DNA of 64,000 bases from Patescibacteria group bacterium (GTDB taxonomy: Bacteria; Patescibacteriota; Patescibacteriia; CAIXNZ01), in the NCBI GenBank assembly GCA_028714455.1, contig JAQTMG010000003.1:39834-103833 (forward strand). Reading direction: 5' to 3'. The notes below the pieces were generated by a model. It ran no database searches and had not been told where the DNA came from. It saw nothing but the letters and a program-made list of their open reading frames with translations. Of the stretch, positions 45,257 to 63,341 are shown one piece after another; within the stretch, counting starts at the first letter, position 1; the number at the start of each line of letters is the position of its first letter. Both the position numbers and the translations under genes were made by a program.

Positions 45257-45294
45257 ATATTATCACCTCCTTTCCATGTTTTTTGTTTTCAAAG

Positions 45295-45695
45295 AAAAGG
45301 GAGGGGTAAATTCCCCTCCCACCGCTGGTTACTCGCGAATCGCAAGCTGTGCGTGTACCGATCAAGAACCGGGTGATTTGCATATTGCCGTCAGAATTCT
45401 GACAGCCCCTTTCGGCTATTTTAGGATCTCTTAGGGTTCCGGCAATAAAGCTAACTGTCTTGATCTAATTTCGGATTTTAGGGTTAGGGAGGGGTGCAAG
45501 ATTTATACATTTACTTCAAGTTTTGGTTATCCCCTCTCCTTCTAATTAAACCGAATTACCGAGCCAGTTACCTTCGCCGAAAATTATCTAGAGAAGGATA
45601 CGCAGTTTATGTACCTAACTCAAGTTTCGGCTAATCCTTCTCTTTATCCTATTTGGCCTCAAAGCTCGCTAACCAGCGAATGATAATACTTTAGT
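45295..45695 (-). ncRNA. Candidate RT-associated structured ncRNA (about 380 nt) directly upstream of and co-oriented with the RT
   Basis: Minus-strand promoter-like TTGACT-17 nt-TAAAGT at 45716-45688. Two paralogous long hairpins have conserved loops (AAACTTGA..GTA.ATAAA) and different, individually complementary stems (GAGAAGGAT/ATCCTTCTC versus GGAGAGGGG/CCCCTCC). There is a 14-bp palindrome GTCAGAATTCTGAC. The 3' end is a GC-rich hairpin GGGAGGGG-AATTTA-CCCCTCCC followed by TTTTCTTTG just before the RT RBS. Confidence 0.4.
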
Positions 45696-47158: not shown

Positions 47159-48333
47159 AGACTCAAAAGCTTATAAATATATTTTTTGATATCAAATTCC
47201 TGTGCCTTTATTTTAGCATTTTCCGAGAGATGAGAAAAATTGCCGATGTTTTGCAGGCTCAAATTCAGCTTGTTCAACAGACTAATCCTGTTGTTCGGTT
47301 CAAACAAATAGCCGCAAACGCCTTCCTGAATCAACTCGGGAATGCCGCCGATTGACGAGGCGATGACAGGTGTGGCGAATTTAAAGCTGTCATAAATCAC
47401 GCTCGGAGAATTTTCATAGCAAAGTGAAGGCACAATCGTGTAATGAACTTTTTTAAAAACCTCTCTGCCCAGCAGATTCGAGGAGATAAAGCCCAAAAAC
47501 TCGACCCAGTCGGCGTTCTCATATTTCTTTTTTAATTCATCTTCCAGACTCCCTCGACCCACCACCAAAAGCCGGCACTTGCCATTTTTATTAAATTCGG
47601 AAAAAACGTCCAGCAAAAAGGAGATGCCTTTATGCTTTTCCAGCTGACCCAGAAATAAATAATTTATTTTGTCATCTTCCAATTTTTTGTGCCAATTCGC
47701 GTCTTCCAAAATAATCGGGTTGGGCAAAACAACTTCTTTGGATTTTTTGAAAAAACCGCGCTGATGATAAAAATCCAAAAGCCATTTTGACGGGGAGACC
47801 ACGACCTCGGGGTTATTAAATAATTTCTGACAAATTTTGGCGTAAATTCGCGAAAGCCAACCCTCGCCTTCTTGACCGTAAATTATCAGACCAGAGGGAT
47901 TGACCAGTTGAACATCGTGAAGCGTATGAATATTTTTTAAACCCAAACTTTTAACGGCCGTGGGCGTTAAATAGCCAATACCTTTTAAATTATGCGTTAA
48001 AACAAGGTCTGGTTTTTCCTGCCGCAGGATTTCCTTAACTTGAAAATACGAATGTAAATTAAAAGCATCAATAATGTGCCACAAAAATCTTTTCCAGGCG
48101 GGTTGTTTGCCTATTTCCACAAATGAAAACAGGTTCAGAGGATAAAAACGATATATTTTAATATCATCCATCAGCGAAACAAAGAATTTTTTCTTGTCCT
48201 TGTGCCTGGAAATTGTGATAACAAAAACATCATGGCCGTCTTTTTTTAGTTCTTTGACAATGTTCGAAAATACAACCTCGGCCCCTCCCCGTTTATATGG
48301 CTTATACAAACTATTTATCAACGCAATTTTCAT
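47155..48333 (-). CDS. Glycosyltransferase family 4 (GT-B)
   Basis: MKIALINSLYKPYKRGGAEV N-terminus and a C-terminal E-X7-E-like region. Confidence 0.7.
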   Translation of the reverse strand: MKIALINSLYKPYKRGGAEVVFSNIVKELKKDGHDVFVITISRHKDKKKFFVSLMDDIKIYRFYPLNLFSFVEIGKQPAWKRFLWHIIDAFNLHSYFQVKEILRQEKPDLVLTHNLKGIGYLTPTAVKSLGLKNIHTLHDVQLVNPSGLIIYGQEGEGWLSRIYAKICQKLFNNPEVVVSPSKWLLDFYHQRGFFKKSKEVVLPNPIILEDANWHKKLEDDKINYLFLGQLEKHKGISFLLDVFSEFNKNGKCRLLVVGRGSLEDELKKKYENADWVEFLGFISSNLLGREVFKKVHYTIVPSLCYENSPSVIYDSFKFATPVIASSIGGIPELIQEGVCGYLFEPNNRISLLNKLNLSLQNIGNFSHLSENAKIKAQEFDIKKYIYKLLSL

Positions 48334-48451
48334 ATGCCTGAATTTACGAATATACTAATGTTAATTTTATTAAATTCCGAATCATTTGTTCTCAATTCTT
48401 TAGTATTCTTTATTCTAACCTCATATAACTTCATAAACATCATAAACTCCA

Positions 48452-49630
48452 TTAACTCTTGAGCAAATCTTCATAAATACCAACCAGCCTCCTAATCAAA
48501 TATTCCTGGCCAAAATATTTTTCAGCCTTTTGCCTACCCTGCTGGCCCATTTTTTCCCGAAGCTGATCGTCTGACAATAATTTGCTGACTCGGTTCGCCA
48601 AATCACCTTCATTTTTAACCTCAAAAAGAAAACCGTCAACCCCATCGCTAATCACACTGCGCACACCAGGCAAGTTTGAAGCGACTACCGGCTTGCCGCA
48701 GGCCATAGCTTCAATCAGGGTAATGCCAAACGCTTCGGATCTGTCAACCGAGGGCAGGACAACCAGATCGGCGAGGTTATAATAGTCGGCGATTTTTTCG
48801 TCCGTGACTGGATCAGCGAAAATTATTTTCCCGGCCAGACCCGCCTTGGACACTTCGTCTTTATATTTATTTTTTAGATTCCCCTCACCGACAATCAATA
48901 GCTTAACGTGATAATTAGAATCCTGACCGCCCGAATAATCGAGAACGTTGAAAGAATCAATCAAAAATTTAATGCCCTTGAAATAATGGGCCTTATCCAG
49001 CGCGCCGACAAATAGCATGACTCTATCAATTTCTGAATTTATTCCATATTTATAGAGCAGCTCCTTATTTTTCTTGGAGGGAAAAAACTTTTCCAAGTCA
49101 ACGCTCGGCGGCAATTCCAAAAATTTTTCCGGAGTTTTGGCCACCAGGGCGTTAATATTCGAGGTCTGCGCGTAGTCAAGCGAGGTGACAATAACTTTAT
49201 CAGCGGAATTTATTATGCGAGGCATGATGAACTTGGTATGAAAACTAAAAAATGGTTTCATAAAAATTCCGCCCACCACATCCATATGATAAGTGATCAC
49301 CAGATTTATTTTGCTCTCGTTTAATAGCTTAGCCAGCCAAACCACTTCAGCGCCGCCAAAAAAGGGATAATGCAAGTGCACAATATCAAAATCTTTTAAG
49401 GACCAGAGCAATTGCGGCAAAAAAGCGCCGTTGCCGAGCCGGCCAAAAGTCGAGAGCCGCTTAATCTCAAACTCATCGCTCTTATAATTTTTATCATCTA
49501 CGTTATAAAGCGGCGTAAAAACCGTGACTTGGTGCCCCAATTTGGCCAAACCTAATGATTCCTCGGCGGCCATATTACTGATACCGCCTTTGTAGGGCTT
49601 AAACCGACAAACTATTTGAGCTATTTTCAT
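48452..49630 (-). CDS. Glycosyltransferase family 4 (GT-B)
   Basis: GT4 hallmarks: C-terminal E-X7-E-like region (SEAFGITLIEAMACGKPVV) and an N-terminal GGxxxxxxE-like motif. Confidence 0.7.
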   Translation of the reverse strand: MKIAQIVCRFKPYKGGISNMAAEESLGLAKLGHQVTVFTPLYNVDDKNYKSDEFEIKRLSTFGRLGNGAFLPQLLWSLKDFDIVHLHYPFFGGAEVVWLAKLLNESKINLVITYHMDVVGGIFMKPFFSFHTKFIMPRIINSADKVIVTSLDYAQTSNINALVAKTPEKFLELPPSVDLEKFFPSKKNKELLYKYGINSEIDRVMLFVGALDKAHYFKGIKFLIDSFNVLDYSGGQDSNYHVKLLIVGEGNLKNKYKDEVSKAGLAGKIIFADPVTDEKIADYYNLADLVVLPSVDRSEAFGITLIEAMACGKPVVASNLPGVRSVISDGVDGFLFEVKNEGDLANRVSKLLSDDQLREKMGQQGRQKAEKYFGQEYLIRRLVGIYEDLLKS

Positions 49631-49716
49631 AATAATACTAATTTACTAATTCATGTTAATTATATGGATATTCACCGATCGGTATTATTCGTAATTATCC
49701 GTTTATTAGTATCCAA

Positions 49717-50760
49717 CTACCAAACTATCAAGTGTTTTATTATTTGCCAATATAAATTAAAAACCGGATTGGCGATTTTCTTTATAAAAAAATTATCAAT
49801 TTCCTGAAATTCAATTCTGCCGGTAAAAAATTTTATAACCTCTTTATCCCCTGTTACTCTTTTTGCCCGTTTCTCCCTTCTTTCTCTTCTGATTTTCTTC
49901 CACGTCTTCGGCTTTAAAAAATATCCGCAAACTTTTAACTTCTCTAACCAAAAACCAGACTTGATTGAAAAAATGAATAAACCGATTTCCATCAAGAGCC
50001 AAGTCGGAAAAATTAAAATCAAAGTGCCCAGTTTATAATTTTCCAAAAGGCAGATCAAACGGTTTCTTTCCATGAAATAATATTTTTTGATGCTCTTGGA
50101 AAATTGATATTTATGATAAACAACTGCCTCTGGCACAAGTAAAATATCGTAGCCGGCCAGCCTCGCGCGCCAACCCAAGTCAAGATCCTCGTGGTACATG
50201 AAAAAATCCGGGTCGAAAAGACCAATCTTTTTTAAAACCTCGGTCTTGATTAAAACCGCGGCGCCGCTGGCGTAAGCGATTTCCCTGGGCGTCAAATTCC
50301 CGCTAAACTTCTGGTAACCGCCGCTGGAAAAACCAAAGCCCAAAAAATGAATTGAATTGCCCAGCGAATTAACCTTATCTTTTTCCGGCCAGAGCATCAA
50401 TCGCGGTTGTACCGCCGCGACTCTCTCGTCTCTCAAAACCGAAATTAATTTATTGAGAGAATCGGGCTCTGAAACCGTATCCTGATTGATGAGATAAACA
50501 AAATCAAAGCTCTCGGCCACGGCTTTTTCCAGGGCCAGATTATTACCAGCCGCAAAACCCAAATTTTCTTTGTTGATTATCAAATCGACAGCCGGATAAT
50601 TATGCTTGACAAATTCAAGCGAGTCATCGGTTGAGGCGTTATCAACTAAAAATATTTTTAAATCCTCTTTCGGGTAATCCAAATTCAAGAGTGACTTCAG
50701 GCAATCGTCAAGATATTCCCTGCCGTTGAAATTAACGATTATTACCGCGACTTTATCCAT
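49717..50760 (-). CDS. Glycosyltransferase family 2 (GT-A) with C-terminal TM segments
   Basis: AVIIVNFNG, DNASTDDS and a DxD-like region. Confidence 0.7.
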   Translation of the reverse strand: MDKVAVIIVNFNGREYLDDCLKSLLNLDYPKEDLKIFLVDNASTDDSLEFVKHNYPAVDLIINKENLGFAAGNNLALEKAVAESFDFVYLINQDTVSEPDSLNKLISVLRDERVAAVQPRLMLWPEKDKVNSLGNSIHFLGFGFSSGGYQKFSGNLTPREIAYASGAAVLIKTEVLKKIGLFDPDFFMYHEDLDLGWRARLAGYDILLVPEAVVYHKYQFSKSIKKYYFMERNRLICLLENYKLGTLILIFPTWLLMEIGLFIFSIKSGFWLEKLKVCGYFLKPKTWKKIRRERREKRAKRVTGDKEVIKFFTGRIEFQEIDNFFIKKIANPVFNLYWQIIKHLIVW

Positions 50761-50817
50761 ATAGTTTTAAAAAGGTAGAGACGGCTCTACCCTTTTATTT
50801 ATAATATTTTTCAGGTG

Positions 50818-51846
50818 TTAGCCTTTTATTTCCGTGTGATTCCAGTCAACCAAAACTTTATGCGCCTTGGCGAATTCAATCGTCTCGGCCAGACCCTGGT
50901 CAAGAGTCACGACCGGGAACCATTCCAGCTTATCTTTGGCCAGACTGATATTCGGTATGCTCAAGCGAGACATGAAAAGCAGCGGATCTGAATATTGTAT
51001 TTCTGATTTTGAGCCGGTCATTTTTATAATCATTTTAGCCACGTCTGAAACTTTATATTCCTGTGAGGCGCCTACGTTAAACGGGCCTGCCTCGCTTGAG
51101 GCCATCATTTTCAGCGCCGCGTCAATCGCGTCTGAAACATAGCAAAGCGTCATGGTAAATTTTGTGTCTCCGTAAATCTTAAGCGGCTGATTATCCAAAG
51201 CCGCCACGATAAAATCCGGAATCATATGACCGACAAACAGGGGCATGCGCGGCCCATAAGTCGTAAAGATTCTTAAAATTTTCGCGTCAAGGCCGTAAAA
51301 TTGTTTGTAAGTGTAGACTAATGTTTCGGCAAACCTCTTGCCTTCGTCATAACAGGCGCGGGGTGTCAAGGGACTGGTGGCGTGATAACTTTCTTCAGCA
51401 ACAATCGGCTTTTTCTCGTCGCGCGGTCCATAAACAACGGAAGAAGAAAAATGCAAAAATTTGGCCTTGTATTTGATGGCCAGCTCAAGGCCTCTGATAG
51501 TGCCCAGGCTGTTGGTCTTGGCGCTCTCAACGATTGTCTCGGAAAAATTTTTGGGGCTGGTCGGGCAGGCCAGATTATAAATCTCCTGAATGCCCTGAAA
51601 TTTCACCTTGAATCTTTCTAGCTCTTTATATTTTTCCAAATCAATAAGATTGTTGACATCATCGTTAATAAAAATAAAATTTTCCTGCGACATTAGATTT
51701 TCAATGTTCTCGCGTTTGCCAGAAATAAAATTATCAACGCAAATCACATTATTATCGGCAACTAACTTATCGCAAAGATGAGAGCCTAAAAATCCGGCTC
51801 CTCCCAAAACCAGAATGTTTTTCTTGGCAAAAACTCCGTTTGGCAT
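50818..51846 (-). CDS. NAD-dependent epimerase/dehydratase (UDP-glucuronate decarboxylase/UXS-like)
   Basis: ILVLGGAGFLGSHLCDKL Rossmann motif and a YDEGKR catalytic motif. Confidence 0.65.
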   Translation of the reverse strand: MPNGVFAKKNILVLGGAGFLGSHLCDKLVADNNVICVDNFISGKRENIENLMSQENFIFINDDVNNLIDLEKYKELERFKVKFQGIQEIYNLACPTSPKNFSETIVESAKTNSLGTIRGLELAIKYKAKFLHFSSSVVYGPRDEKKPIVAEESYHATSPLTPRACYDEGKRFAETLVYTYKQFYGLDAKILRIFTTYGPRMPLFVGHMIPDFIVAALDNQPLKIYGDTKFTMTLCYVSDAIDAALKMMASSEAGPFNVGASQEYKVSDVAKMIIKMTGSKSEIQYSDPLLFMSRLSIPNISLAKDKLEWFPVVTLDQGLAETIEFAKAHKVLVDWNHTEIKG

Positions 51847-51970
51847 ATTGTTGTAATTCTTAATTAATAATTACTAATTTTAATAATTTTAAATTAGTCA
51901 TTAAATAAAAATTTAAAATTAATCATTGATGTATATATATTTTATCAAAAATAACGGAATAGATAAAGGG

Positions 51971-52396
51971 TTAATTTTTGGCTAACTTTAAATCTTTTTT
52001 GAACGTCCAATATTTATTGGCGAAAAAATTCCAAAATAAACCCAGGGCGATGGCCACAAGCTTGGCCAGAAGGTCAAAAACGTTCAGATATTTTACGCTA
52101 AAATAAAAGATGGCGTTGTACAAAATAAAGTAAAAAATCGCTATCAAAAAAAATTTCAGATACTGGCTGGCCAGCTTATTTTCAAAATTGCCAAACGTCC
52201 AGTACTTATTCGCGAAAAAACTGAAAGTCATGGCCACCAGCACCGAGACGATGTTGGCGTAAAGAAAATACAAACCCAGCGCTCGGCTAAAAAATAAATA
52301 GACACCATAATCGATAATGGTGTTAAGGATTCCGACCAGGCAAAATTTTAAAAACTGCCTGACGATTTCTTTTTTTGTATATTTTTCAATCATCAA
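51971..52396 (-). CDS. GtrA-family membrane protein
   Basis: 141 aa with four TM helices and GtrA-like motifs (FLKFCLVGILNTIIDYGVY, KYWTF repeated twice). Confidence 0.65.
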   Translation of the reverse strand: MMIEKYTKKEIVRQFLKFCLVGILNTIIDYGVYLFFSRALGLYFLYANIVSVLVAMTFSFFANKYWTFGNFENKLASQYLKFFLIAIFYFILYNAIFYFSVKYLNVFDLLAKLVAIALGLFWNFFANKYWTFKKDLKLAKN

Positions 52397-53982
52397 TTTA
52401 AATTGGCTGCTGAAAAAAGACCCTTATCGGCGTCAATCGAGGTTGCGCCGGCGATTTCAGCGGCCAGATCATAAGCCGCCGAGCTGTCAATCGGAGCGCC
52501 GCTTTGATAATTGGCGAAAAATGAATCCGGCACGTCCTTAACTTTATTTTGCCAAGCAGATCCGAAAATCGAGAGTGCCAGGTCCTCTGATTTAACCCAG
52601 CGCAAAACCCCGCCGCGAGAAACCGCATAGACTTTGGGATCGGTGGCGATTTTCACCAAACTGCCTGGCTTGAGATTCACCACGCCGCCAAATGGAATCT
52701 CCGCCAAACTCGCGTCAGATATTTTTTGCACGCCGCTAAAATCAAGATACCAGCTTAGATAGGTCTGTTTATCTGGAAAGGCGTAGCGCTTGCCGTCAGC
52801 GCCATGATAATAAACCGTATCTTGAGACCCTTTGATGAGCGGATTGGCTACCGGCACGACGTTCAGAGCTTGAAAAATTTTAACCGGATTAATCAGCCCG
52901 TGACCCATTTCACCGGCAAATTGCGGACTGTTCGCGTCCAGGTTATCGGCATTATTTAAAATCAAGTCCATTATTTCCTGGCCGTTTAAACTCGGCTTAA
53001 ACGATTTAATAAGCGCCGCGAGTCCCGAGACGACCGGTGCCGCTAGCGAAGTGCCTGAATATCCCCCGCCGAAATAAGCGCTAAACGAGGCGTTGTTCGC
53101 GTCAAATAAAAGCGTGCCCCAAAAATCCTCGCCTGGCGCTATCACGTCAATGCAACTTGAACCAAAATTGGAAAAATTGGCGAGCCGGTCGTTTTTATCG
53201 CTGGCGCCCACGCCGAGCACGATGTTCTCGCCGTTAGTCCCCTGGAAACAGACCGGATACATTTTGATAGAATCCAGATTGATTGAATGGCCGAAAGAAC
53301 TTTCATTACCGGCGGCCGCTATAACCAGAATGTTATTTATATAAGCCCTCTCCACGGCTTTTTCCAGCGAAGCGTCGTAAGTGTCGCCGACAAAACTTAG
53401 ATTTATAATACTCGCCCCGTTATCAATGGCGTAATTGACGGCTCTGACCACGTCCGAAGTATCGCCCGCGCCGTTTTCATTCAAGACGCGCAGCGGCATA
53501 ATTTTTACGGTCCAGGCCAGGCCGACCGTCCCAAAACCATTATTGCCGACGGCGCCGATTACTCCGGCAATCAGAGTGCCGTGCAAGATCGCCTCCTTGG
53601 TACAGGTGGAAGCGGCCAGACAGTTCTCGCCAAATTTCGGCGTCGGATTATTATTATTTTCAATAAAATCCCAACCGTTGAGATCGTCAATATAGCCATT
53701 ATGATCATTGTCAATTCCGTCATTGGCAATTTCCTTTTGATTTACCCATATATTGTCATGCAAATCGGGGTGTGAAATGTCCACGCCAGAGTCAATCACG
53801 GCCACGATAACACTGCCGCTGCCCGTTTCCTGACCCCAGACTTTTGGCATCTGTAAATCGCTTAAATACCACTGTTTGGAATAATCGGAATCGTTTGGCA
53901 CCAATTCCGCGGCCAAACAAAAATTGCCCAAAGAAAACAGGGTCATAAAAATAATTAACTTTAAAATATTTTTATTTTTCAT
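52393..53982 (-). CDS. Secreted subtilisin-like serine protease (S8) with C-terminal shared ~115-aa domain
   Basis: Signal peptide; catalytic Asp, His and Ser regions (DSGVDISHPDL, HGTLIAGVIGAVGN, GTSLAAPVVSGLAAL); C-terminal domain homologous to those in 54576..56273 and 57099..61037. Confidence 0.85.
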   Translation of the reverse strand: MKNKNILKLIIFMTLFSLGNFCLAAELVPNDSDYSKQWYLSDLQMPKVWGQETGSGSVIVAVIDSGVDISHPDLHDNIWVNQKEIANDGIDNDHNGYIDDLNGWDFIENNNNPTPKFGENCLAASTCTKEAILHGTLIAGVIGAVGNNGFGTVGLAWTVKIMPLRVLNENGAGDTSDVVRAVNYAIDNGASIINLSFVGDTYDASLEKAVERAYINNILVIAAAGNESSFGHSINLDSIKMYPVCFQGTNGENIVLGVGASDKNDRLANFSNFGSSCIDVIAPGEDFWGTLLFDANNASFSAYFGGGYSGTSLAAPVVSGLAALIKSFKPSLNGQEIMDLILNNADNLDANSPQFAGEMGHGLINPVKIFQALNVVPVANPLIKGSQDTVYYHGADGKRYAFPDKQTYLSWYLDFSGVQKISDASLAEIPFGGVVNLKPGSLVKIATDPKVYAVSRGGVLRWVKSEDLALSIFGSAWQNKVKDVPDSFFANYQSGAPIDSSAAYDLAAEIAGATSIDADKGLFSAANLN

Positions 53983-54564
53983 TTAATATTCAATGAAATC
54001 TGTTTTAAAAATTGATTGATCACCGATTTCATAATTTCGCCAGGAAGAATAGGGATATTTTGAAATATCTTCAACTAAGCGAGCAGAAATCGGATTGTTG
54101 TGGATATAATTTAATTTTTCGTTAAATTTCTTGCCAGAATAGATATTAAAGTCGTAAAAACTGGGCTGCCAGATTCTCCTCATCCTCCGGGTAGCCAAGG
54201 CCCCTGCGCCTTGGCTTTTTAAGGGCAAGGCGTATGAGCCTTGCCTACCTATAAAAGAGATGGGTGGGTCTTGCCGACCCGACATGGAATCAAATAAATA
54301 TTCATTAATCAACCTGGAACTATATCCTTTCACCCCGTGCATTATTCTGGAAATGGTTAATTTCGGATTTTCAAAATAAACCAACAAATGGACATGGTCA
54401 GGCATAATACAATACCCATATATCTTCAAATTAAATTTTTTCCGATAATAATCGAGGTTATCTAAAAACAACCGACAGCATTTATCATCTGTAAAAAATT
54501 TTTGTCTGCCGTGTGTATTGGCCGTTACAAAATGGATATGACCCAAATCATTAAATCTGTGCAT
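53983..54564 (-). CDS. IS200/IS605-family Y1 transposase-like protein (RAYT-like) with in-frame structured insertion
   Basis: HuH motif MPDHVHLLV and C-terminal YDFNIY..NYIHNNPISARL (RAYT-like). A roughly 110-bp insert at 54178-54290 contains hairpins CCAAGGC..GCCTTGG and GGCAAGGC..GCCTTGCC and is translated in-frame (RRMRRIWQ..). Confidence 0.6.
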   Translation of the reverse strand: MHRFNDLGHIHFVTANTHGRQKFFTDDKCCRLFLDNLDYYRKKFNLKIYGYCIMPDHVHLLVYFENPKLTISRIMHGVKGYSSRLINEYLFDSMSGRQDPPISFIGRQGSYALPLKSQGAGALATRRMRRIWQPSFYDFNIYSGKKFNEKLNYIHNNPISARLVEDISKYPYSSWRNYEIGDQSIFKTDFIEY

Positions 54565-54575
54565 CTAATTTCCGT

Positions 54576-56273
54576 CTACGTGTGCGGCACAATTACAATC
54601 TTATCCTCGCTAATCGAAGTCGCGTTCGCCGTTGCTGTCAGCGGACTGAAATCTCCCACTAACGCGATGTCCGCGCCAACATTATAGTTCACGAAAAACG
54701 CGTCGGCCACGTCTTGGACTAAAGTGGCCCAATTATCGCCATAAAGAGCTTTGGCCAGCGCTTCGGTTTTTATCCAGCGCAAAGTACCGTGGGCATCAAC
54801 CGCGTACACTTTCGGATCAGTTGTGATTTTTATCAATTTTACACCCGGCTTATACGTCACATTGCCGCCGATGGAGATGGCCGCGAGTTGCGCGTCGGTA
54901 ATCGTCTTGACTGTTGAAAAATCCGGATACCAGGTCAAATACGTATTGAGCGTGGGAAAAACATAGCGCTTGCCGTCAGTGGCATAATAATAAACAGCCG
55001 GACCCGATGCCTTAATCAAATCGCCGTAAGAAATATTGGCCCCGACCAGTCCGGGCGCGTTAATCGTAATTGAGAGAGTGCCGATAACCTGATTATCCAC
55101 TTTAACTGATACTGTCTTAACGCCCAAAGAGGTGGATCTTGCTTCAAAAATTATTTTGCCGTTCACGTCTGAATTATTATTAGGAATAGTGATGATAACT
55201 CCCGAACTGGCGTCGACCACGATTTGTTTATTGGGAAGTGGCTGCCCCATGGAATCCTTAATGGTCACGGTAATGGTTGATTTATCTAAGCCATCATTGG
55301 CCAAAACGATTTTATCGGCCGCGACCGAGGAATTGGAGACCGAGAATGTCTGCGCGTGCGCGCTGACTGTAATCGAGCCTGTCTGCGTAAAATTTCCCCA
55401 GCCATCATGGGCCTGCAAACTGATGGTGTGCGTGCCGTCGCTGATGTTTTCCCAGTCGTAACGCCAGGTGTAAAAATTAACATCCATTTCCTGCACTGGA
55501 TATTCCTGACCGTCAATAAAGATATTGAAATCGCGGATATAACTGCCGCCCTCGTCTCTGGCCATGCCCTGGATCATTAAGCTGTTGGTGTTTAAAATCT
55601 GGCCGTCAAATAAATTGGTAATAACCAGTTTGGGTCCGAACATATCAATGGAATAGGTGCTGACTACCTGGCTGTTCGCGTTTGTCACATTGTCATCGGT
55701 CGGTCCGTTATTTTTGGCAGCCGTGAAAACGCCGAAATCGCCCACGTCAAAAAGGCCATTGGCATTATTGTCCGTAAGAATCGGAATCTGCATCAAAATC
55801 GTGGCCGTACTCGTGTAGTCGGAGAATGTTTCTACGGAGACAAAAAATCTTTTGCCAATGCTTGCGCTTTCATTCAAATTTTGAATATACCAAGATTCAT
55901 AAGTCGTGGTGTAATTAAAATTGCCGATTACCCGGTCAACACCCATGCCTTGAAATCCGGCTGGCCCGTCATCGGCCCAGAGCGTCATGTATTTTATATG
56001 GCTTAAATAATTGGCCGTGCCCAGATTTTTCAAGCCGAGAGCGTTAAGCGTGTCTGTGCCGCTGATATTAAGCGTGAAATCCATAATCAGGCCGTCAAAA
56101 GTCGCTCGATAAAAAGTCGCGTAAGGCGCCTGCAGGTTAATAACTGAACTGGTGGTAAAGGCCAGAGATGGCTGCGCGCCCAAAATCGTCAGCGCCAAAA
56201 TCGCGATGATGATAAAAATTTTTCTTCCGCCAAAGGCAGACCCGCCTCTGACGGGCATAATGTTTTTTTGCAT
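54576..56273 (-). CDS. Membrane-anchored surface protein with Ig-like (Big) domains and C-terminal shared ~115-aa domain
   Basis: N-terminal TM/signal, Big-like beta-sandwich repeats and a C-terminal block AVYYYATDGKRYVFP..DPKVYAV..LRWIKTE. Confidence 0.5.
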   Translation of the reverse strand: MQKNIMPVRGGSAFGGRKIFIIIAILALTILGAQPSLAFTTSSVINLQAPYATFYRATFDGLIMDFTLNISGTDTLNALGLKNLGTANYLSHIKYMTLWADDGPAGFQGMGVDRVIGNFNYTTTYESWYIQNLNESASIGKRFFVSVETFSDYTSTATILMQIPILTDNNANGLFDVGDFGVFTAAKNNGPTDDNVTNANSQVVSTYSIDMFGPKLVITNLFDGQILNTNSLMIQGMARDEGGSYIRDFNIFIDGQEYPVQEMDVNFYTWRYDWENISDGTHTISLQAHDGWGNFTQTGSITVSAHAQTFSVSNSSVAADKIVLANDGLDKSTITVTIKDSMGQPLPNKQIVVDASSGVIITIPNNNSDVNGKIIFEARSTSLGVKTVSVKVDNQVIGTLSITINAPGLVGANISYGDLIKASGPAVYYYATDGKRYVFPTLNTYLTWYPDFSTVKTITDAQLAAISIGGNVTYKPGVKLIKITTDPKVYAVDAHGTLRWIKTEALAKALYGDNWATLVQDVADAFFVNYNVGADIALVGDFSPLTATANATSISEDKIVIVPHT

Positions 56274-56299
56274 ATTTTTTAAAATTATAATTTTAATAA

Positions 56300-56878
56300 T
56301 TAATTTAAAATGTTAAATTCAACCGCCTCTTTGGGATTATCACGATCAAATTCCCAATTTACCGGATTATTGGCAATATATCCTTTTATCCGCGCGTAAT
56401 CTTCATCGTTTTTGATAATGTGTTCGTAATAATTATCTTGCCATTTGAAATCAAGGTTATTTTCATGGCATTTGCGCGTAACGGCACCTTTAAATGTATT
56501 AACGACAGACGATAATGATTTTGGTTTGACGTGGCCAAATTTATTCCGTGTAGAGACAGGGTATACCCTGTCTCTACAATTTTTTGCAAAATCATTTTCG
56601 TCGCATTCAATTTCAATTATCCCATGAACATGATTTGGCATGATTATCCAATCGTCCAATCTTATATTATTAAAATGCTTTGGTATCTCCAACCAACAAT
56701 CAAAAACGACTTTCCCAACCTCCGATAAATAAACATTATTATCCTTAATTTCACCCAAATCGTATATTCTGTCTTTGGTGCAAATTGTCACGAAATAAAA
56801 ACCTCCTTTGGCATAATCCCATTCCATCAAACGCATACTCGCCACGCGATATTTATTTTTAAAATATTCGTCCCCCAT
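56300..56878 (-). CDS. IS200/IS605-family Y1 transposase-like protein (RAYT-like) carrying a copy of the GTAGAGAC palindromic repeat in-frame
   Basis: HuH motif MPNHVHGII and C-terminal WQDNYYEHIIKNDEDYARIKGYIANNP (RAYT-like). The core GTAGAGACAGGGTATACCCTGTCTCTAC lies at 56549-56576 inside the ORF, translated RDRVYPVSTR. Confidence 0.6.
   Translation of the reverse strand: MGDEYFKNKYRVASMRLMEWDYAKGGFYFVTICTKDRIYDLGEIKDNNVYLSEVGKVVFDCWLEIPKHFNNIRLDDWIIMPNHVHGIIEIECDENDFAKNCRDRVYPVSTRNKFGHVKPKSLSSVVNTFKGAVTRKCHENNLDFKWQDNYYEHIIKNDEDYARIKGYIANNPVNWEFDRDNPKEAVEFNILN
56549..56576. repeat. Structured palindromic repeat core, copy 4 (intragenic)
   Basis: Identical to the core of copy 3; no outer GGGGCGAAAACG inverted repeat. 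Confidence 0.85.
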
Positions 56879-57036
56879 TTTTTATTTTTATTTTCCTACC
56901 TCTATTTTACACCAAAAACCCAATATTAACCAAACACAACCCCCGCGTTCTCCCCTCCTTTTCAAGGAGGGGTTCGGCCTGCCTGCCAAAGCTTCAGCGC
57001 AGGCGGGGCAGGTGGGGTAAAAAATTTCCCCAATCA

Positions 57037-57068
57037 AAACAGCCCCGCGAGCGCGGGGCTGTTTTTTC
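57037..57068 (-). terminator. Rho-independent terminator of the adhesin gene
   Basis: CAGCCCCGCG-AG-CGCGGGGCTG hairpin flanked by A and T runs. Confidence 0.6.
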
Positions 57069-57098
57069 TATATCAACGAATCAACAAATTTAGATCAA

Positions 57099-60000
57099 TT
57101 AGGGCTTCACTAAGGCGTTGGCATAAATGCCGCCGCGGAAGATGACATCATCCTCAACATAGTTACCACCATTGTAATTGATACTCCAATTCAGGTTAGG
57201 TGTTGATGCAGCAGCGTCGTTTAACAGAAGCTGGACTGAATCACCAAGGTTAGTCATAGCAGCGGTATTACCGTAAATATACAGTTTCTTGGTCTGACCC
57301 TTTGGTATGACAAAGTCCTTCTGGGCAAACAAGAATGCAGCAGCAGCAGGAGTACAGATATCTGTTGCGGCCAGAGTGGCATTATCCAAGATATTACCAT
57401 CTTCATCCTTCAAAACAAGGCCGGCGCTAGGTCCAGCGGTGCAGTGAGAAGAGATAGTAATCTTCAGTGTGTTTGCGCCAACGACTGGAAGAGTTGGACC
57501 ATCGAAAGTAACATCATCATTATTATCAGCCTTAACATTGAAGATAGCTAACAAAGTGTTAGCACCTGGTACTAGAGCGCCTGATGGCGAACTAGCATTC
57601 AAGCTGAAGTATGGTCGTGACTCATAAGCGAAATGGGTAGCAGGAATTGCTGCTTGCGCATTGGCTGTCTGTTGGCCAGATGACTTACCAGTTACATGGA
57701 TATCACCGGCGGCAAAAACTCGAGCCTGGATAGGATCGGCGTTACCTACGGTAACAGCATCAACCGGAGCGACATCAATTTTAACTGTCAAGGTAACACT
57801 GCCATTGGCCGGAATAGTAACTGTGTTGTCAGCCAAGACAAAGGTGGCTACAGATCCGCCAGAAGCAACAGCAACAGGATCGGTGATAGCACCGCCGTCA
57901 GCTCTTGAACTTGAATATAGATACCAGCTAGTTGCTACTGGTCCAAGAAGCGCTGTGGTTCTGTTAGTTCTAGCCCAAGTACCAGTTGTACCAACGACTG
58001 TAACAACAGTAGCAGATGACACAGTAAAGTTATTAACGCCGAAAGTAGTAACCGTGAAAGGACCGCTGCCTAATACTGGAGTAGAATCGGTTCCGCTCAA
58101 TCTGACAGTGTCACCGGTTGCGAGACCATGACCAGCGGAAGTAATAACTGGTAATGCTGTCCAGGTGCCTGCCGTAGCTGATGTTACACAACCAACGGGG
58201 GCGGCATAAGTAAAGGTAGCAGCGCCAGTTGTTGTAGCAGCAAATGTACCATTACATGTGCCATAAGCAGCGCCATTGACTGTAATGTTTATTGTAGAAC
58301 CAACAACTATTGGCAATGTGTGGTTAACAGCAGAAGTTACAGTTACTGTGCCAGCGGCCGAAACGATACCAGTAGTAGCACCAGTTGTTAAGCTGATTGC
58401 AGTGATAGCACCATTAGTACCTGTATCAGTCACCCTTACATCGTCAATGTCTAAATCCTCAACATTGTTAGCCTGTAATTTATAGACGGCCACAGTTTGC
58501 TTTGTTGAGCTAGCTATTAGCAATGATTTGCTTGGTGATGAAGCGTCTAATGATGTAGTTAAGATACCGGCAGCCGAATCAGTCATTTGCTGACCAGCGC
58601 CGCTATAAGCTACTGCAGGTGTGTTGCCTGTAGATTTGCCCGAAGCGGTTACGGCAGAAACATTCATGGTATGTCTATTTGGAGTAACAGTGTCACCCAG
58701 AGTAGACAAATCACCAACCACCGCAATCTTTACATAGCTACCCTTTGGCACAGTAATAACTTGAGTCAAAGAAATGGCTTTTGTAGCGGGGCTAACACCA
58801 GCAGCTGGCTGTTCATTGTTAGAGACTTTGGTCTCATACGCGTCGCCGCGTGTTGAGCTAGCTGGAGTTAAATCAGCCCAGATTGATAAATTCTGAATCT
58901 CTCTAAAGTCAGCACCTACTACAACGCTAGTAAAGGTGTCTCTAACTGTAACTGCGGAAACTCTCACATCTTCGCCAGAAGCAGTTGCGTCTAATGAAGC
59001 AGTTGCCCAGACAAAGTTTTGAGTACCGACAGCCACAGTGCGAGCGGCGGGTTGAGTTAAAGTTGCAGCACTCAAGGCAACAGCCAATATAGTTTGGACA
59101 TTGCCGTTTGCTGCAGCTGTAGAGATCGTCATGTTGTCCCTAGTGTTCATGCCAGTAGCAGTGATGTCAGTATTTGGAGTAGCAATATCAGCGCGAATAG
59201 TGCCGACAGCAGCTACGCCTGCGTTAGCAATAATATCAGTCTTAAAGGTGAATTTATGAGTACCTGTTGGCACAATATATGTATCTGTAAATACAGCGCA
59301 AACGCCAACAAAGCCGCAAGTAGCGCCAGTAGCATCATTGGTTATTGCTCTTGGACCAGCAATCGTGCTGCCAGTTTCATCAACCAATTTAGCGTTTGTT
59401 ATATTTGCCGGTAATAGACCTCCACCTAGAGTCAATTTAACTATAGTTCTTGTAATTTTGGCTGCTTCACCTCTAACTTCAAAAGCCCAAGTCGTCAAGG
59501 GCTGTTCTGAAGCTTGAGTGATATTGCCAGTTGCAGGAGAAGAGACATCCTTAGTTATATTTAAGATGCCGGTATTAACTGTTTGGTCAGTACCCTTACC
59601 ATCCCAACCATTAAGTATGACTGGAGTAAGGTAGAAACCATAAGTATTACCCTTAACAGTAACTAGGGCGTCTGTACCATCGGTTAAATCAAGGTTCAGA
59701 GTATTACCCGAACCGCTGACCACGTCGGTGTAGACCTGGAAAATATGTTTTGCGCCCTTTGGAATCACTACGTTCAAGGTACTAAAAGTAACTCTTGAAT
59801 TAGCATCAAAGGCAGCGACAGTTCCCAGAGTTCTACCCTCTGTCAAGCTGTACAATTCAATGTTGGCATAATCAACATTGCTAGCCGTACCAGCTTCTAA
59901 CAAGCTGATGGTCTCAACTGTTAGATCTTCGCCGGGACCAGCATTAACTTCAAATTGAGAAACCTGGACCCTCTTAGAGCCAGCGTCTGGCTTGCTGTCT

Positions 60001-61037
60001 GGCGGCAAAGCGTTTTTATCAACGCTAACAGAGCCTAAATCAGCCACCAAAACTACACTCATATAATTTCCCATAACAGGGAAAGCGCCAGTTACGGTGC
60101 CAGCATCCAAAACAACATCAGAAGCTGTTGAAATACCTAGAGCGATTGTATTGCCCCAAGGTGCCAAGCCAATACTTGCTCTGATAAAATAAGAAACAGA
60201 GGTATTGGCAGGGATAGATAATGATGGCACAAAAGTAACTAAAGCTTTGCTATTTGAACCCAAGCTAGCTACGCTACCAACAGTTGCGCCATTCATAGCC
60301 ACTAATTTGATGTTTGAAACATCATCATTAGAGCTTAAGCCAGTGCGTGTGATGTACATTGACTTAACTGTAGCAGCGGTATTGCCTGCGCTTAAAGTAA
60401 TTTTAGTAAAATTAGCAGAAGCAGTATCAGCTACCGTAGAAGCAGCTGGAGTATCAGAAGCCAAAGAAACATTTAGATTGCCACCTGTTGTAACTGAACC
60501 AGCTAAGCCCTTATCAACGTTAATTGATTGAGCGCCAGCTGTTGCGGCAGATGGAGAATAATCAGAAGCATTGTTTATCGGTGCGCCAACAGTGTAGTTG
60601 GTGAAAAATGCGTCTGACACATCCTCAACCTTGCTTGTCCAGGTTGCTCCGTACAAAGTAGAAGCAATGGATTCAGTAGTAATCCATCTTAATTGACCAT
60701 TAGCGGCTACGGCATAAACTTTGGGGTCAGTGGTAATTTTTACCATCTTAACGCCTGGTTTATAAGTAACGTTGCCTCCAATAGCGATAGTAGCTAATTC
60801 GCCGTCAGTGATTGTTCTCACTGTGGAAAAATCAGCGTACCATGTCTTGTATGTCTTCTCATTTGGGAAAACATATCTCTTGCCATCAGCACCGTAGTAA
60901 TAAACGGCTGGTAAAGATGCCTTGATCAAATCGCCCGAGCTGAAAGTTACAGCTTGCGCGCTTGGAACAAAGCCTGCCAAACCGATTGACCACATAATGG
61001 TCACCACCACAATACTGACAGTAAAAAACTTTTTCAT
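57099..61037 (-). CDS. Giant secreted surface protein/adhesin (Thr/Ala/Gly/Val-rich beta-sandwich repeats) with N-terminal shared ~115-aa domain
   Basis: Signal peptide MKKFFTVSIVVVTIMWSIGLAGFVPSAQA (start moved to this Met; the ORF track extends to 61121). It has an N-terminal AVYYYGADGKRYVFP block and roughly 1200 aa of low-complexity Ig-like repeats. Confidence 0.6.
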   Translation of the reverse strand: MKKFFTVSIVVVTIMWSIGLAGFVPSAQAVTFSSGDLIKASLPAVYYYGADGKRYVFPNEKTYKTWYADFSTVRTITDGELATIAIGGNVTYKPGVKMVKITTDPKVYAVAANGQLRWITTESIASTLYGATWTSKVEDVSDAFFTNYTVGAPINNASDYSPSAATAGAQSINVDKGLAGSVTTGGNLNVSLASDTPAASTVADTASANFTKITLSAGNTAATVKSMYITRTGLSSNDDVSNIKLVAMNGATVGSVASLGSNSKALVTFVPSLSIPANTSVSYFIRASIGLAPWGNTIALGISTASDVVLDAGTVTGAFPVMGNYMSVVLVADLGSVSVDKNALPPDSKPDAGSKRVQVSQFEVNAGPGEDLTVETISLLEAGTASNVDYANIELYSLTEGRTLGTVAAFDANSRVTFSTLNVVIPKGAKHIFQVYTDVVSGSGNTLNLDLTDGTDALVTVKGNTYGFYLTPVILNGWDGKGTDQTVNTGILNITKDVSSPATGNITQASEQPLTTWAFEVRGEAAKITRTIVKLTLGGGLLPANITNAKLVDETGSTIAGPRAITNDATGATCGFVGVCAVFTDTYIVPTGTHKFTFKTDIIANAGVAAVGTIRADIATPNTDITATGMNTRDNMTISTAAANGNVQTILAVALSAATLTQPAARTVAVGTQNFVWATASLDATASGEDVRVSAVTVRDTFTSVVVGADFREIQNLSIWADLTPASSTRGDAYETKVSNNEQPAAGVSPATKAISLTQVITVPKGSYVKIAVVGDLSTLGDTVTPNRHTMNVSAVTASGKSTGNTPAVAYSGAGQQMTDSAAGILTTSLDASSPSKSLLIASSTKQTVAVYKLQANNVEDLDIDDVRVTDTGTNGAITAISLTTGATTGIVSAAGTVTVTSAVNHTLPIVVGSTINITVNGAAYGTCNGTFAATTTGAATFTYAAPVGCVTSATAGTWTALPVITSAGHGLATGDTVRLSGTDSTPVLGSGPFTVTTFGVNNFTVSSATVVTVVGTTGTWARTNRTTALLGPVATSWYLYSSSRADGGAITDPVAVASGGSVATFVLADNTVTIPANGSVTLTVKIDVAPVDAVTVGNADPIQARVFAAGDIHVTGKSSGQQTANAQAAIPATHFAYESRPYFSLNASSPSGALVPGANTLLAIFNVKADNNDDVTFDGPTLPVVGANTLKITISSHCTAGPSAGLVLKDEDGNILDNATLAATDICTPAAAAFLFAQKDFVIPKGQTKKLYIYGNTAAMTNLGDSVQLLLNDAAASTPNLNWSINYNGGNYVEDDVIFRGGIYANALVKP

Positions 61038-61415
61038 AAGTAAATTCTTTAAATTGCTCTCGATCCAGAATCTGGCTGCTGGAAAATAAGGTTTTGACAT
61101 CCGTCTTCGCTTCGCCTCCAAGCCAACTCGGAGTCGACCTTTGCCAAAGCAAATGGGATCCCTATAGTCCGCTTAACCAAACCGTGAAAAGAGAGTGTTA
61201 ATTAGCTTCTTACCTCGCGGTAAGAAAATCCTCGGCCTTGCGGCCTCGGTTTTACTCACACCTTTCGGTATGAGCCAGCCCCAAACCGTCTGGTTTAGGG
61301 GTGGATGAACCACACTGCGATAATCACCAAATTCCAAGCATCAAATCCCAAACAATATGGATAGTAGTTATAACAGTGTGATTCACCCAAATATATTTAA
61401 TTATTAATTTTCAAT

Positions 61416-62753
61416 TTAACTCTTTGTCTCTGTTTCTATCGCCTCGACCTTGGCAGAATCTGCTGGTTTGTCCGCCTCCTGATTTTCAACCGGCGCGACC
61501 AGGTACTGGCTGTTGGCGTCAATAACTTTATTAATGGTTGATAAAATATCATCGGCCTGATTTACCTGCACAAAGGCCTGCGAGACCGAGTTGCTCTTCA
61601 GATATTCCTCGGCTTTGGCCAACAGTTTTTCTATCTGGGCCGGCTTATCTTTCATCTCTTCAATAGTCGGCAAAACCTCGACTGGCGCTTCTGGTTCTAG
61701 CGCGGAAATATCGCTGTTGATATTCGTATTTGAATTGGTATTTAAATTTACATTCGAATTGGTGTTTAAATCAGTTCCGGAATTTGTATTTGTGTTGGCA
61801 TTTGAATTTGACTGTTCCTTATCAGCCTCGGTCGTAGTTGTTTTAGTCTTATCGATTGCCGTTGCCGCGTCCTCTTGCTTTTTCTCTGCCTCGACTTTGG
61901 CCGCTGCTTCAGCTTCGGCTTTAGCCTTGGCTGCTTCGGCTTTGGCCAGTTCCTCGGCTTTGGCCTTATTATCAATAATAGTCTGAATGTCTGTCTTGGC
62001 CCCCTCATTGTCTTTTTTCAAGCCCTCGATTCTTTCGCTAAGTTTCAATTTGAGCTCATCAAGTGAAACGTCTTCACTGCCGCTTTCAAATTCGTTAAGC
62101 ATAACTGAAAGCGCTTTATCGCCGGTTGCCTTGGAAACAATAATAGCGTCTGTCGTGTTGGAATCAGACTTAATTTCATCGCTCCTTAAAAGATCAACGT
62201 AGACGCTGGCCTGGCGGTCAACCATGTCAGCCAATTTCAAGGCCTTGCCTTTATCAGTCATTTCCAGCTTGGCCAGATTGCTTTTCACGTTCGCCATGTT
62301 CTCCTGATATTTTTTCAGAGGCAGTTCAAGTTTGGACTTATCGTTTGTTCGGCTCATCACTTTCTTCGCTTCATCCAAACGCAGACCGGCAAAGGACATT
62401 TCCAGATTTGTTTTCTTCTCATCGTTAAGCGCCAGATTAACCTGCAGGCGCTCGCCTGTCAGTTTTAAGCCCCAAAGCAAATCACCGGGCAAACTATTTT
62501 TAGTGGCGCCGACTCCGGCCGCCCAGATGCCGGAAACCGCGATCAGAATCGCGAAAGTCATGGCGACAGGCCTTAATATGGTAAAAGCAAATTTTTGAGC
62601 CAACACTTTTGACAATTTATTTGAATCAAGCTCACTTGTCTGGGCGATAATTTGGGCATGCAAAATCTCCCGGCTTTTTTCTTTCCAGGTTTGGTTGGGC
62701 AAAATCTTATTTTGCAAATTATTGAGTTGTCGCAAGAGTTCTTTTTTCTTCAT
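61416..62753 (-). CDS. Putative anti-sigma factor-like membrane protein with low-complexity (TNxN) C-terminus
   Basis: Immediately downstream of the ECF sigma gene; one TM segment (FAFTILRPVAMTFAILIAVSGIWAAGVGA); coiled-coil and Asn/Thr repeats. Confidence 0.4.
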   Translation of the reverse strand: MKKKELLRQLNNLQNKILPNQTWKEKSREILHAQIIAQTSELDSNKLSKVLAQKFAFTILRPVAMTFAILIAVSGIWAAGVGATKNSLPGDLLWGLKLTGERLQVNLALNDEKKTNLEMSFAGLRLDEAKKVMSRTNDKSKLELPLKKYQENMANVKSNLAKLEMTDKGKALKLADMVDRQASVYVDLLRSDEIKSDSNTTDAIIVSKATGDKALSVMLNEFESGSEDVSLDELKLKLSERIEGLKKDNEGAKTDIQTIIDNKAKAEELAKAEAAKAKAEAEAAAKVEAEKKQEDAATAIDKTKTTTTEADKEQSNSNANTNTNSGTDLNTNSNVNLNTNSNTNINSDISALEPEAPVEVLPTIEEMKDKPAQIEKLLAKAEEYLKSNSVSQAFVQVNQADDILSTINKVIDANSQYLVAPVENQEADKPADSAKVEAIETETKS

Positions 62754-62771: not shown

Positions 62772-63341
62772 TTATTTTTTTGGCTCCTTGGCCACGAGTT
62801 CCTTAAGGGTGTTTAACGCTCGGTAGAGCAGCACCCTCACGTTGCCTTTTTTCTTTTCAATGATTTCGGCAATTTCGCCTATTGATAGATTCTCAATGTA
62901 GCGCAAGACAATTACTTCCCTGTATTCATCTTTCAGTTCCCGCAATTTTGTTTCCAGATCTTCTATGTCCAGGCCGACATCTATTTTTTCTAAGCTGCTT
63001 GTCGCCGCGCCCATTCTTTCATCTAAATTATCTTTCTCTTTTTCCAAAGATATTTCCGTTCCCTTGCTGGCTCTTCGGTAATAATCAACGATTAAATTTC
63101 TGGCGGTCTTGTAGAAAAATGCGTTCAAATTTTTTACTTTTTTTCCGTCCGCGATGTACTGCCAGGTTTTCAAAAATACTTCGGAGGAAAGGTCCTGGGC
63201 ATCTTCCGCGTTGGCAACTTTAAAAAAAATAAAGCGATAAATCCTGTCCAGATACAAATCGTAAACCTTGCTAAAGGCCTCCGGATCTTTATTCTTCGCT
63301 TTAAACAGTAAGTATTGATTTTTAAGTAAATTACCTTTCAT
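62772..63341 (-). CDS. RNA polymerase sigma factor, ECF (sigma-70 group 4) family
   Basis: Region 2 (FSKVYDLYLDRIYRFIFFKV) and region 4 HTH (LSIGEIAEIIEKKKGNVRVLLYRALNTLK). Confidence 0.85.
   Translation of the reverse strand: MKGNLLKNQYLLFKAKNKDPEAFSKVYDLYLDRIYRFIFFKVANAEDAQDLSSEVFLKTWQYIADGKKVKNLNAFFYKTARNLIVDYYRRASKGTEISLEKEKDNLDERMGAATSSLEKIDVGLDIEDLETKLRELKDEYREVIVLRYIENLSIGEIAEIIEKKKGNVRVLLYRALNTLKELVAKEPKK

Follow-up and report, generated by a model that had tools for sequence, protein, structure and literature searches.

What is the role of a sequence block that recurs in three neighbouring secreted proteins of a member of the Patescibacteria? The question is raised by a stretch of 64,000 nucleotides from a Patescibacteria group bacterium (contig JAQTMG010000003.1 of assembly GCA_028714455.1), which we call the window and whose positions are used throughout. 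The ORF (open reading frame) listing and the alignment of the translations reveal three copies of a domain of ~150 amino acids in three secreted proteins, all encoded on the minus strand: a subtilisin-type (S8) protease, an immunoglobulin (Ig)-domain protein and a giant protein. We consider that this domain is probably a non-covalent anchor to the cell wall or to a wall glycan, working in the manner of SLH or CWB2 in surface-layer (S-layer) loci. The three carriers and their copies are listed below.

52393-53982, minus strand: S8 (subtilisin-type) protease with the domain at its C-terminus; Peptidase_S8 at E 6e-47, D/H/S motifs in the translation
52417-52845, minus strand: domain copy A, residues ~380-525, at the C-terminus of the S8 protease; identity of 53-55% with copies B and C (tblastn, alignment)
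54576-56273, minus strand: Ig-domain protein with signal peptide, Big_7, Big_1/Invasin_D3 and the domain (Pfam)
54600-55025, minus strand: domain copy B, residues ~415-560, at the C-terminus of the Ig-domain protein; identity of 69% with copy C (tblastn, alignment)
57099-61037 (ORF 57099-61121), minus strand: giant all-beta secreted protein with signal peptide, the domain and ~7-8 beta-sandwich-like domains
60504-60935, minus strand: domain copy C, N-terminal in the giant protein, immediately behind its signal peptide (tblastn, alignment, AlphaFold2 model)

The shared block is real and far beyond chance. Searched by tblastn against the whole window, each copy retrieved the others at 53-69% identity (E 1e-42 to 1e-63), while the next score in the 64 kb was no better than E 0.26 and thus revealed no further copy. 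The original prediction, which was made from the letters alone, had described a block of ~115 residues, C-terminal in the protease and the Ig-domain protein and following the signal peptide in the giant protein. Sharing and placement are both confirmed by the alignments. The length has to be revised, since the conserved unit comprises ~145-150 residues (profile positions 3-155 in relatives) and consists of two modules in tandem. Consistently, the local confidence of the predicted structure (pLDDT, predicted local distance difference test) remains above 90 over the first ~150 residues of the modelled segment.

At the DNA level, identity between the copies of the window amounts to 71-85% and is confined to short stretches. 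Orthologues from close relatives are 80-83% identical for copy C, 74-76% for copy B and ~59% for copy A, compared with 53-69% within the genome. In a neighbour-joining tree of the domain (~150 residues), copies from close relatives sort by carrier protein, which indicates that the paralogues are old and predate speciation. We rejected a recent duplication or gene conversion among the copies on account of this grouping and of the restriction of DNA identity to short stretches. In the more distant genomes of two related loci, L003 (6235-9970 and 11093-12749) and L037 (9249-12948 and 14022-15663), copies from the same genome cluster together and not with their orthologues, an arrangement which rests on a weak neighbour-joining tree of ~150 residues. 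It would fit gene conversion, or else copies that evolved together with a ligand specific to the lineage.

Is the domain already known? Neither Pfam, NCBIfam and PHROGs nor a sequence profile search of the PDB returned a family match, and SLH, CWB2, LysM and the catalogued carbohydrate-binding modules gave no Pfam or NCBIfam match at E ≤ 1. In these catalogues the block has no curated family, as had been supposed at the outset. Literature searches combining Patescibacteria with cupredoxin or DUF, using DUF5667, or combining the candidate phyla radiation (CPR) with EccB found no description of it; one preprint reports S-layer proteins in Patescibacteria. The family is nevertheless very large. 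HMMER, run exhaustively over 1.84 billion representatives, yielded 4,899 clusters (50% identity) at E ≤ 1e-3, of which 2,113 at E ≤ 1e-30; a word-indexed search gave no fewer than 1,430 clusters (90% identity), and GTDB species genomes contain at least 584 domain loci, under the names Falkowbacteria, Uhrbacteria, Parcubacteria and Patescibacteria. The named sources are almost all Patescibacteria, Falkowbacteria being closest (80-83% identity), followed by Uhrbacteria, Parcubacteria and Magasanikbacteria, and distant lineages still keep ~50-60% identity over the 150 residues of the domain. Some records are labelled otherwise, for example 'uncultured Gammaproteobacteria' in one series of metagenome-assembled genomes (MAGs). 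We treat such labels as unreliable because one of these loci, L002, is syntenic with the window (44-74% protein identity).

What do the carriers have in common? A hydrophobic N-terminal leader is found in 134 of 142 representatives. The domain stands at the N-terminus in most of them, at the C-terminus or at both ends of the protein in others, or alone in proteins of ~177 residues, which bears out the suggestion that it is independent of position. A cupredoxin is the partner in ~47 of the 120 closest clusters, and Big_7 in 21 of 92 representatives. Other partners are Big_1, fn3, Peptidase_C25, S8, trypsin, S11 D-Ala-D-Ala carboxypeptidase, GH10 and GH114, as well as beta-helix, CAP, Inhibitor_I42 and PG_binding_1, the last occurring together with the domain in one representative protein. 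Such very diverse secreted partners are the pattern expected of a targeting module. In other Patescibacteria we noticed a second conserved trio, composed of a ~182-residue domain-only protein, a ~475-residue protein with the domain at its N-terminus and a ~270-residue protein joining the domain to a cupredoxin (L014, L017, L019, L021, L032, L047, L055, L058 and L077, mostly at ~9-12 kb of the locus). This cupredoxin trio is not present in the window.

The AlphaFold2 model of the domain, built from an alignment of 54 sequences, reaches a pLDDT of 93.8 and a predicted template modelling score (pTM) of 0.85. It comprises two successive beta-beta-beta-alpha-beta-alpha modules of ~55 residues (residues ~13-58 and ~62-123 of the modelled segment), followed by two short C-terminal helices. 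In a Foldseek search, the top 11 PDB matches were all to EccB1, EccB3 or EccB5 (best E 8.5e-4, probability 0.99); they cover both modules, with a different geometry between modules and a TM-score of ~0.3. Weaker matches were obtained to wall-binding domains of phage lysins, namely PlyCB and the CBD domains of LysIME-EF1 and Lys170, where the likeness is structural only. In BFVD, the best match was a 115-residue Rhodococcus phage protein (E 3.8e-6, TM 0.75 on the target), and weak matches pointed to M23, CHAP and lysozyme proteins. Could the domain instead be catalytic, or a folding or propeptide-type module such as an intramolecular chaperone or an inhibitor? Five charged residues are invariant (R30, K76, R93, D115 and D118 in copy-C numbering), and accessory pro- or C-terminal domains are frequent in S8 proteases. 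However, the fold searches returned no enzyme match, the domain accompanies dozens of unrelated enzymes and non-enzymes and also stands alone, and the invariant set is mostly aromatic (Y22, Y23, F33, W42, Y84, W109 and Y124). Aromatic and basic invariant sets of this kind are typical of glycan-binding surfaces, and we regard a catalytic or chaperone role as very improbable. For the EccB1 repeats, which are four-stranded sheets with two helices resembling PlyCB, contact with peptidoglycan was considered possible but hypothetical (PMC4769845). PlyCB binds the polyrhamnose backbone of the streptococcal wall polysaccharide (bioRxiv 10.1101/2021.03.19.436156).

The best available evidence for the role of the domain comes from the giant protein. 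The true start of its gene is the ATG at 61037 (MKKFF...), which gives 1312 residues, as an identical database protein from a Patescibacteria MAG (P0263) confirms. The body was modelled by AlphaFold2 at a pLDDT of 82 and is nearly all beta, with ~7-8 sandwich-like domains; it has no match in Pfam or in a PDB profile search. The protein has a pI of 4.8, is rich in T, A, V, G and S and contains 6 cysteines. When the body was searched without the domain, 93 homologue clusters were obtained. The new domain is carried by 29 of these 93, and many of the others start with a signal peptide, a coiled coil and PG_binding_1. Orthologues bearing PG_binding_1 share 43-46% identity in the body, at E-values down to 1e-195, and the Pfam scan places PF01471 at residues ~75-150 (for example E 1.6e-9 in P0286 and E 1e-7 in P0298). 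In a BLASTP comparison, the protein of the window and P0286 are collinear from residues 210 and 203, respectively, to the C-terminus (46% identity over 678 residues), and their first ~200 residues are unrelated. The PG_binding_1 versions have the same sigma factor and DUF5667 genes upstream, with Wzy_C, nucleotide-sugar and polysaccharide genes alongside. An established peptidoglycan-binding domain thus fills the slot of the new domain, which argues for an equivalent job. In the Ig-protein family, no such swap was seen among the 28 homologue clusters (~545 residues, same Big_1/Invasin_D3 annotation). The giant protein of the window also contains a lineage-specific insert of ~155 residues (residues ~876-1031; ~689-845 of the body), rich in Thr, Gly, Ala and Val and modelled at low confidence. 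Most orthologues (~1140-1170 residues) are without it, and only the closest homologues, P0264 and P0265, share it.

The same observations bear on whether the envelope that is bound belongs to another cell. The domain might bind the envelope of an episymbiont's host, or an environmental polymer, as an adhesin or targeting head. Patescibacteria are widely regarded as episymbionts, the phage-lysin domains with a related fold are directed at the wall carbohydrates of particular target bacteria, and some partners are hydrolases or proteases that could act on a host surface. Yet the domain-only and domain-cupredoxin proteins, which have no anchor of their own, would be lost from the cell, and the partners include a housekeeping envelope enzyme (the S11 carboxypeptidase) and cupredoxin electron carriers. 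Moreover, a general peptidoglycan-binding module sits in the same slot of the giant-protein orthologues, and the ~50-60% identity kept between distant lineages argues against a host-specific ligand. Host binding is therefore unlikely in our opinion. Attachment to a host cell had been one of the functions first proposed, and nothing specifically favours it over anchoring to the cell's own wall. Anchoring as such, the other part of that proposal, is the best-supported reading, given the fold likeness, the diversity of secreted partners and the replacement by PG_binding_1.

Are the three carriers neighbours by chance? The genes that complete the locus are the following.

62772-63341, minus strand: extracytoplasmic function (ECF)-type sigma-70 factor, the conserved first gene of the locus (Pfam, synteny)
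61416-62753, minus strand: DUF5667 membrane protein, conserved upstream of the giant gene (Pfam, synteny)
47155-52396, minus strand: glycan-synthesis block with a GtrA-like protein, an NAD-dependent sugar epimerase/dehydratase, a family 2 glycosyltransferase (GT2) and two GT1/GT4 proteins (Pfam)

All genes of the locus are co-directional. ORFs were called in 80 related loci and the proteins of the window were mapped onto them. The order sigma factor, DUF5667, giant, Ig, S8, GtrA, epimerase, GT2 and GT1 recurs in L002, L003, L036, L049 and L001/L069, and is partly present in L007, L028, L037, L038 and L062. In the recurring loci, the domain is always N-terminal in the giant protein and C-terminal in the Ig and S8 proteins, and the glycan-synthesis block is kept downstream of the S8 gene in L002, L003, L036, L049 and L069. 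This conserved string of genes indicates that the three carriers form a functional set and not a chance neighbourhood. The original view of the carriers as otherwise unrelated proteins has to be abandoned in so far as they are no arbitrary set: they belong to one locus conserved across Patescibacteria. The window also encodes a MurA-type enzyme and two Mur ligases, which indicates that the organism makes peptidoglycan.

Conserved trios raise another explanation, in which the main role of the domain is protein-protein docking or oligomerisation: it would assemble co-encoded and domain-only proteins into a single surface complex, contact with the wall being secondary or absent. Domain genes form at least two conserved trios, one of giant, Ig and S8 and the other of domain-only, ~475-residue and domain-cupredoxin. 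The structural neighbours of the domain, PlyCB, the CBDs of Lys170 and LysIME-EF1, and EccB, are oligomers; PlyCB forms rings and EccB dimerises. In addition, the clustering of same-genome copies in L003 and L037 could mean co-evolution, if the weak tree is followed. However, the range of partners is too broad for one specific complex, the substitute found in orthologues is PG_binding_1 and not an oligomerisation domain, and in close relatives the copies sort by carrier protein and not by genome. A docking role appears doubtful as the main function, and it may be combined with wall binding.

How would a wall anchor of this type operate? After export of the carrier by the Sec pathway, the domain would attach non-covalently to peptidoglycan, or to a glycopolymer linked to the wall, so that the carrier would be retained on the wall of a cell which has no outer membrane to confine secreted proteins. 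SLH, CWB2, LysM and PG_binding_1 modules act in this way in other bacteria with a single membrane. With one anchor in common, the giant protein, the Ig-domain protein and the S8 protease would be co-localised in the same layer of the wall, as structural and accessory products of a single surface-protein locus. We infer the wall binding itself, the ligand and any protease-substrate relation between the S8 and giant proteins. Several observations count against this proposal. First, the internal repeat is weak in sequence: the modules align end to end and in register, though weakly, in profile-profile comparisons (hhalign P ~0.002-0.005; 0.002-0.04 for the internal duplication as a whole), and the two-module duplication is suggested by the model more than by the sequence. 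Second, peptidoglycan binding by EccB is itself hypothetical. Third, the single viral-contig match in IMG/VR is a 501-residue non-lysin protein, and no lysin fusion was found. Furthermore, the PG_binding_1 swap means equivalence of position and not of ligand, and the clustering of domain genes in operons could reflect protein-protein assembly.

A broader scheme can be drawn for the locus as a whole. It may encode the principal surface layer of CPR bacteria of the Falkowbacteria, Uhrbacteria and Parcubacteria type, in which the giant protein would be the lattice or fibre subunit and the S8 and Ig proteins co-anchored maturation or accessory factors. The domain would then be a lineage-specific anchor on a secondary wall glycopolymer made by the adjacent GtrA, epimerase and glycosyltransferase genes, domain-only proteins would possibly be extra binding subunits in the manner of PlyCB and Lys170, and expression would be set by the ECF sigma factor, DUF5667 and an RNA leader. 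We put this scheme forward as a tentative possibility only. The acidic, all-beta character of the giant protein, together with a terminator and a structured leader, fits an abundant S-layer-like or fibre-like surface protein as far as the models go, and the label 'adhesin' first given to it fits no better than an S-layer-type protein, the two being equally compatible.

The leader and the terminator of the giant gene are located as follows.

61035-61209, minus strand: structured RNA leader core; the full intergenic leader is 61038-61415
57036-57065, minus strand: terminator-like hairpin with a GC-rich stem of 13 bp and a run of T, 34 nt beyond the giant gene's stop codon

The 378-nt spacer that precedes the giant gene has a predicted folding energy of -144.9 kcal/mol, far below that of shuffles (z = -9.4). 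Its 3' part (~175-260 nt), from GCTAAYTAAYNCTCT to the start codon, is conserved in 13 contigs and always lies between the DUF5667 and giant genes. A covariance model matches in 13 loci: the window, L001 (3157-3339), L002 (2578-2768), L033 (1808-2066), L036 (5493-5706), L049 (5391-5569) and L085-L091. In the alignment of these 13 sequences, which was fitted to the model and of which 7 were found via a pattern taken from the motif, 87% of the pair cells are canonical, against 38-60% in slid controls. Compensatory changes occur in 19 of 29 pairs, and 0 of 500 shuffles reach the observed values. The closing helix stops ~8-10 nt short of the Shine-Dalgarno sequence; GCTAAYTAAYNCTCT and AAAGGYCGAC are conserved motifs. 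Rfam contains no match to the leader, and the covariance model did not detect more distant loci. The leader is a candidate for a new cis-regulatory or mRNA-stabilising element.

Two genes encoding Y1-type proteins are interleaved with the three carriers.

53983-54564, minus strand: RAYT (REP-associated tyrosine transposase)-like Y1 transposase gene (NCBIfam REP_Tyr_transpos NF047646, 112.9 bits, cutoff 80)
56300-56878, minus strand: divergent Y1/RAYT-like gene (NF047646, 63.2 bits, below the cutoff of 80)

Both had been called RAYT-like; they are Y1/IS200-like, and the first scores above the NF047646 cutoff, the second below it. The two genes are 20% identical to each other. The number of RAYT-like genes per syntenic locus ranges from 0 (L049, L003) to 3 (L002), at differing junctions, and the 53983-54564 gene is not at this position in L049 and L003. 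We considered these genes as part of the functional unit and rejected the idea on account of this variable number and position and of their low mutual identity; they are opportunistic variable insertions. A third RAYT/IS200-like Y1 gene lies at 37795-38460 of the window, and others occur in L002, L033, L036, L069, L083 and L087. The Y1 genes are co-directional with the surface-locus genes, with gaps of 0-26 nt on at least one side, and in L083, a locus of the PG_binding_1 type, one of them directly follows the giant gene. This suggests a recurrent targeting of these intergenic sites, possibly with terminator hairpins as the target. A perfect palindrome with a 13-bp stem (56549-56578) lies within the 56300-56878 ORF, GC-rich palindromes such as CCCCTCCTTGAAAAGGAGGGG lie at ~56940-57030 between the giant-gene terminator and the Y1-like ORF, and the L002 leader region contains a nearly identical one, CCTCTCCTTGAAAAGGAGGGG. 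These palindromes are possibly REP (repetitive extragenic palindromic)-like elements.

Further away, a reverse transcriptase is encoded at 44031-45383 (minus strand), whose best NCBIfam match is of the retron type (111.7 bits, against a cutoff of 235). Near it are a FecR-domain protein (45767-47158) and a 684-residue protein without family (41858-43912). A diversity-generating retroelement around this gene was considered and rejected, as no direct repeat of at least 40 nt that could serve as a template/variable pair was found in 40.0-48.5 kb.

One feature of the S8 protease recalls type VII secretion systems (T7SS). In NCBIfam it scores best against mycosin, the protease of type VII secretion (166 bits, against a cutoff of 279), and this mycosin-like protease carries a C-terminal domain with the fold of the EccB repeat, EccB being the periplasmic partner of mycosin in ESX systems. 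A link to type VII secretion was rejected because the mycosin score is far below the cutoff and T7SS genes (EccC, EccD, a WXG100 neighbourhood) occur neither in the window nor among the genes mapped in related loci; the pairing is probably coincidental. Among ORFs of at least 120 residues, the window holds none above 806 residues apart from that of the giant protein.

Why does the domain matter? Much of bacterial diversity belongs to the Patescibacteria, most of which are uncultured; they rely on surface contacts, and their envelope proteins are almost wholly unannotated. An uncatalogued domain present in thousands of clusters, which appears to tag secreted proteins for retention on the wall, could be a practical predictor of their surface proteome, including proteases, electron carriers, glycosidases and a candidate S-layer protein. 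Through it, a conserved surface locus and its probable glycan partner also come into view, and the EccB/PlyCB-type repeat, known from type VII secretion and phage lysins, would become a general modular anchor. Should the scheme of a principal surface layer hold, the complete set of wall-bound surface proteins in these organisms would be defined by the domain. What is new is the very large unannotated family; the class of module to which the predicted role belongs and the precedents for the fold are known, so that the finding is not conceptually surprising. The domain is small and confidently modelled, and can thus be expressed directly for tests of wall or glycan binding.

How does the domain compare with known systems? 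PG_binding_1 (PF01471) occupies the same N-terminal slot in giant-protein orthologues, within the same sigma-DUF5667 locus. It has no profile match to the new domain and belongs to a different fold class, PG_binding_1 being a three-helix bundle. A close parallel at the level of the locus is found in Clostridioides difficile, where CWB2 is the common anchor by which SlpA, Cwp84 (the protease that processes SlpA) and other Cwps of the slpA/AP loci attach to the polysaccharide PSII, and where genes of PSII synthesis, including a GtrA-like gene, adjoin the slpA locus (PMC5842191). Here, too, one anchor is placed at either terminus of a main surface protein, a protease and others, beside glycopolymer genes which include a GtrA-like gene. 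The folds and sequences of SLH and CWB2 are unrelated to the new domain, which has no Pfam match to them, and the likeness is thus one of mechanism and not of family. In addition, the CWB2 system has an S-layer and processing by a protease, whereas the lattice of the giant protein and its processing by the S8 protease are proposed here from analogy.

At the level of the fold, EccB (T7SS_ESX1_EccB, PF05108) is the best match, with the same repeat fold of ~55 residues composed of a four-stranded sheet and two helices. Nevertheless, a Pfam scan of the three proteins at E ≤ 1 gave no PF05108 match, and the PDB sequence profile search at E ≤ 10 did not retrieve EccB. While EccB has four repeats, a central core and an N-terminal membrane helix and is a core component of the T7SS, the new domain has two repeats, no core and no such helix, and is a modular appendage on many carriers. 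The likeness to PlyCB and the CBDs of LysIME-EF1 and Lys170 is weak and structural only, and the domain described here is a fused tandem of two modules. Moreover, those lysin domains are encoded by phages, in contrast to the new domain, which is cellular (one non-lysin match in IMG/VR, no PHROG match). From its predicted fold, we describe the domain as likely to work as a wall anchor of EccB/PlyCB-type repeats, standing beside those families and not within them.

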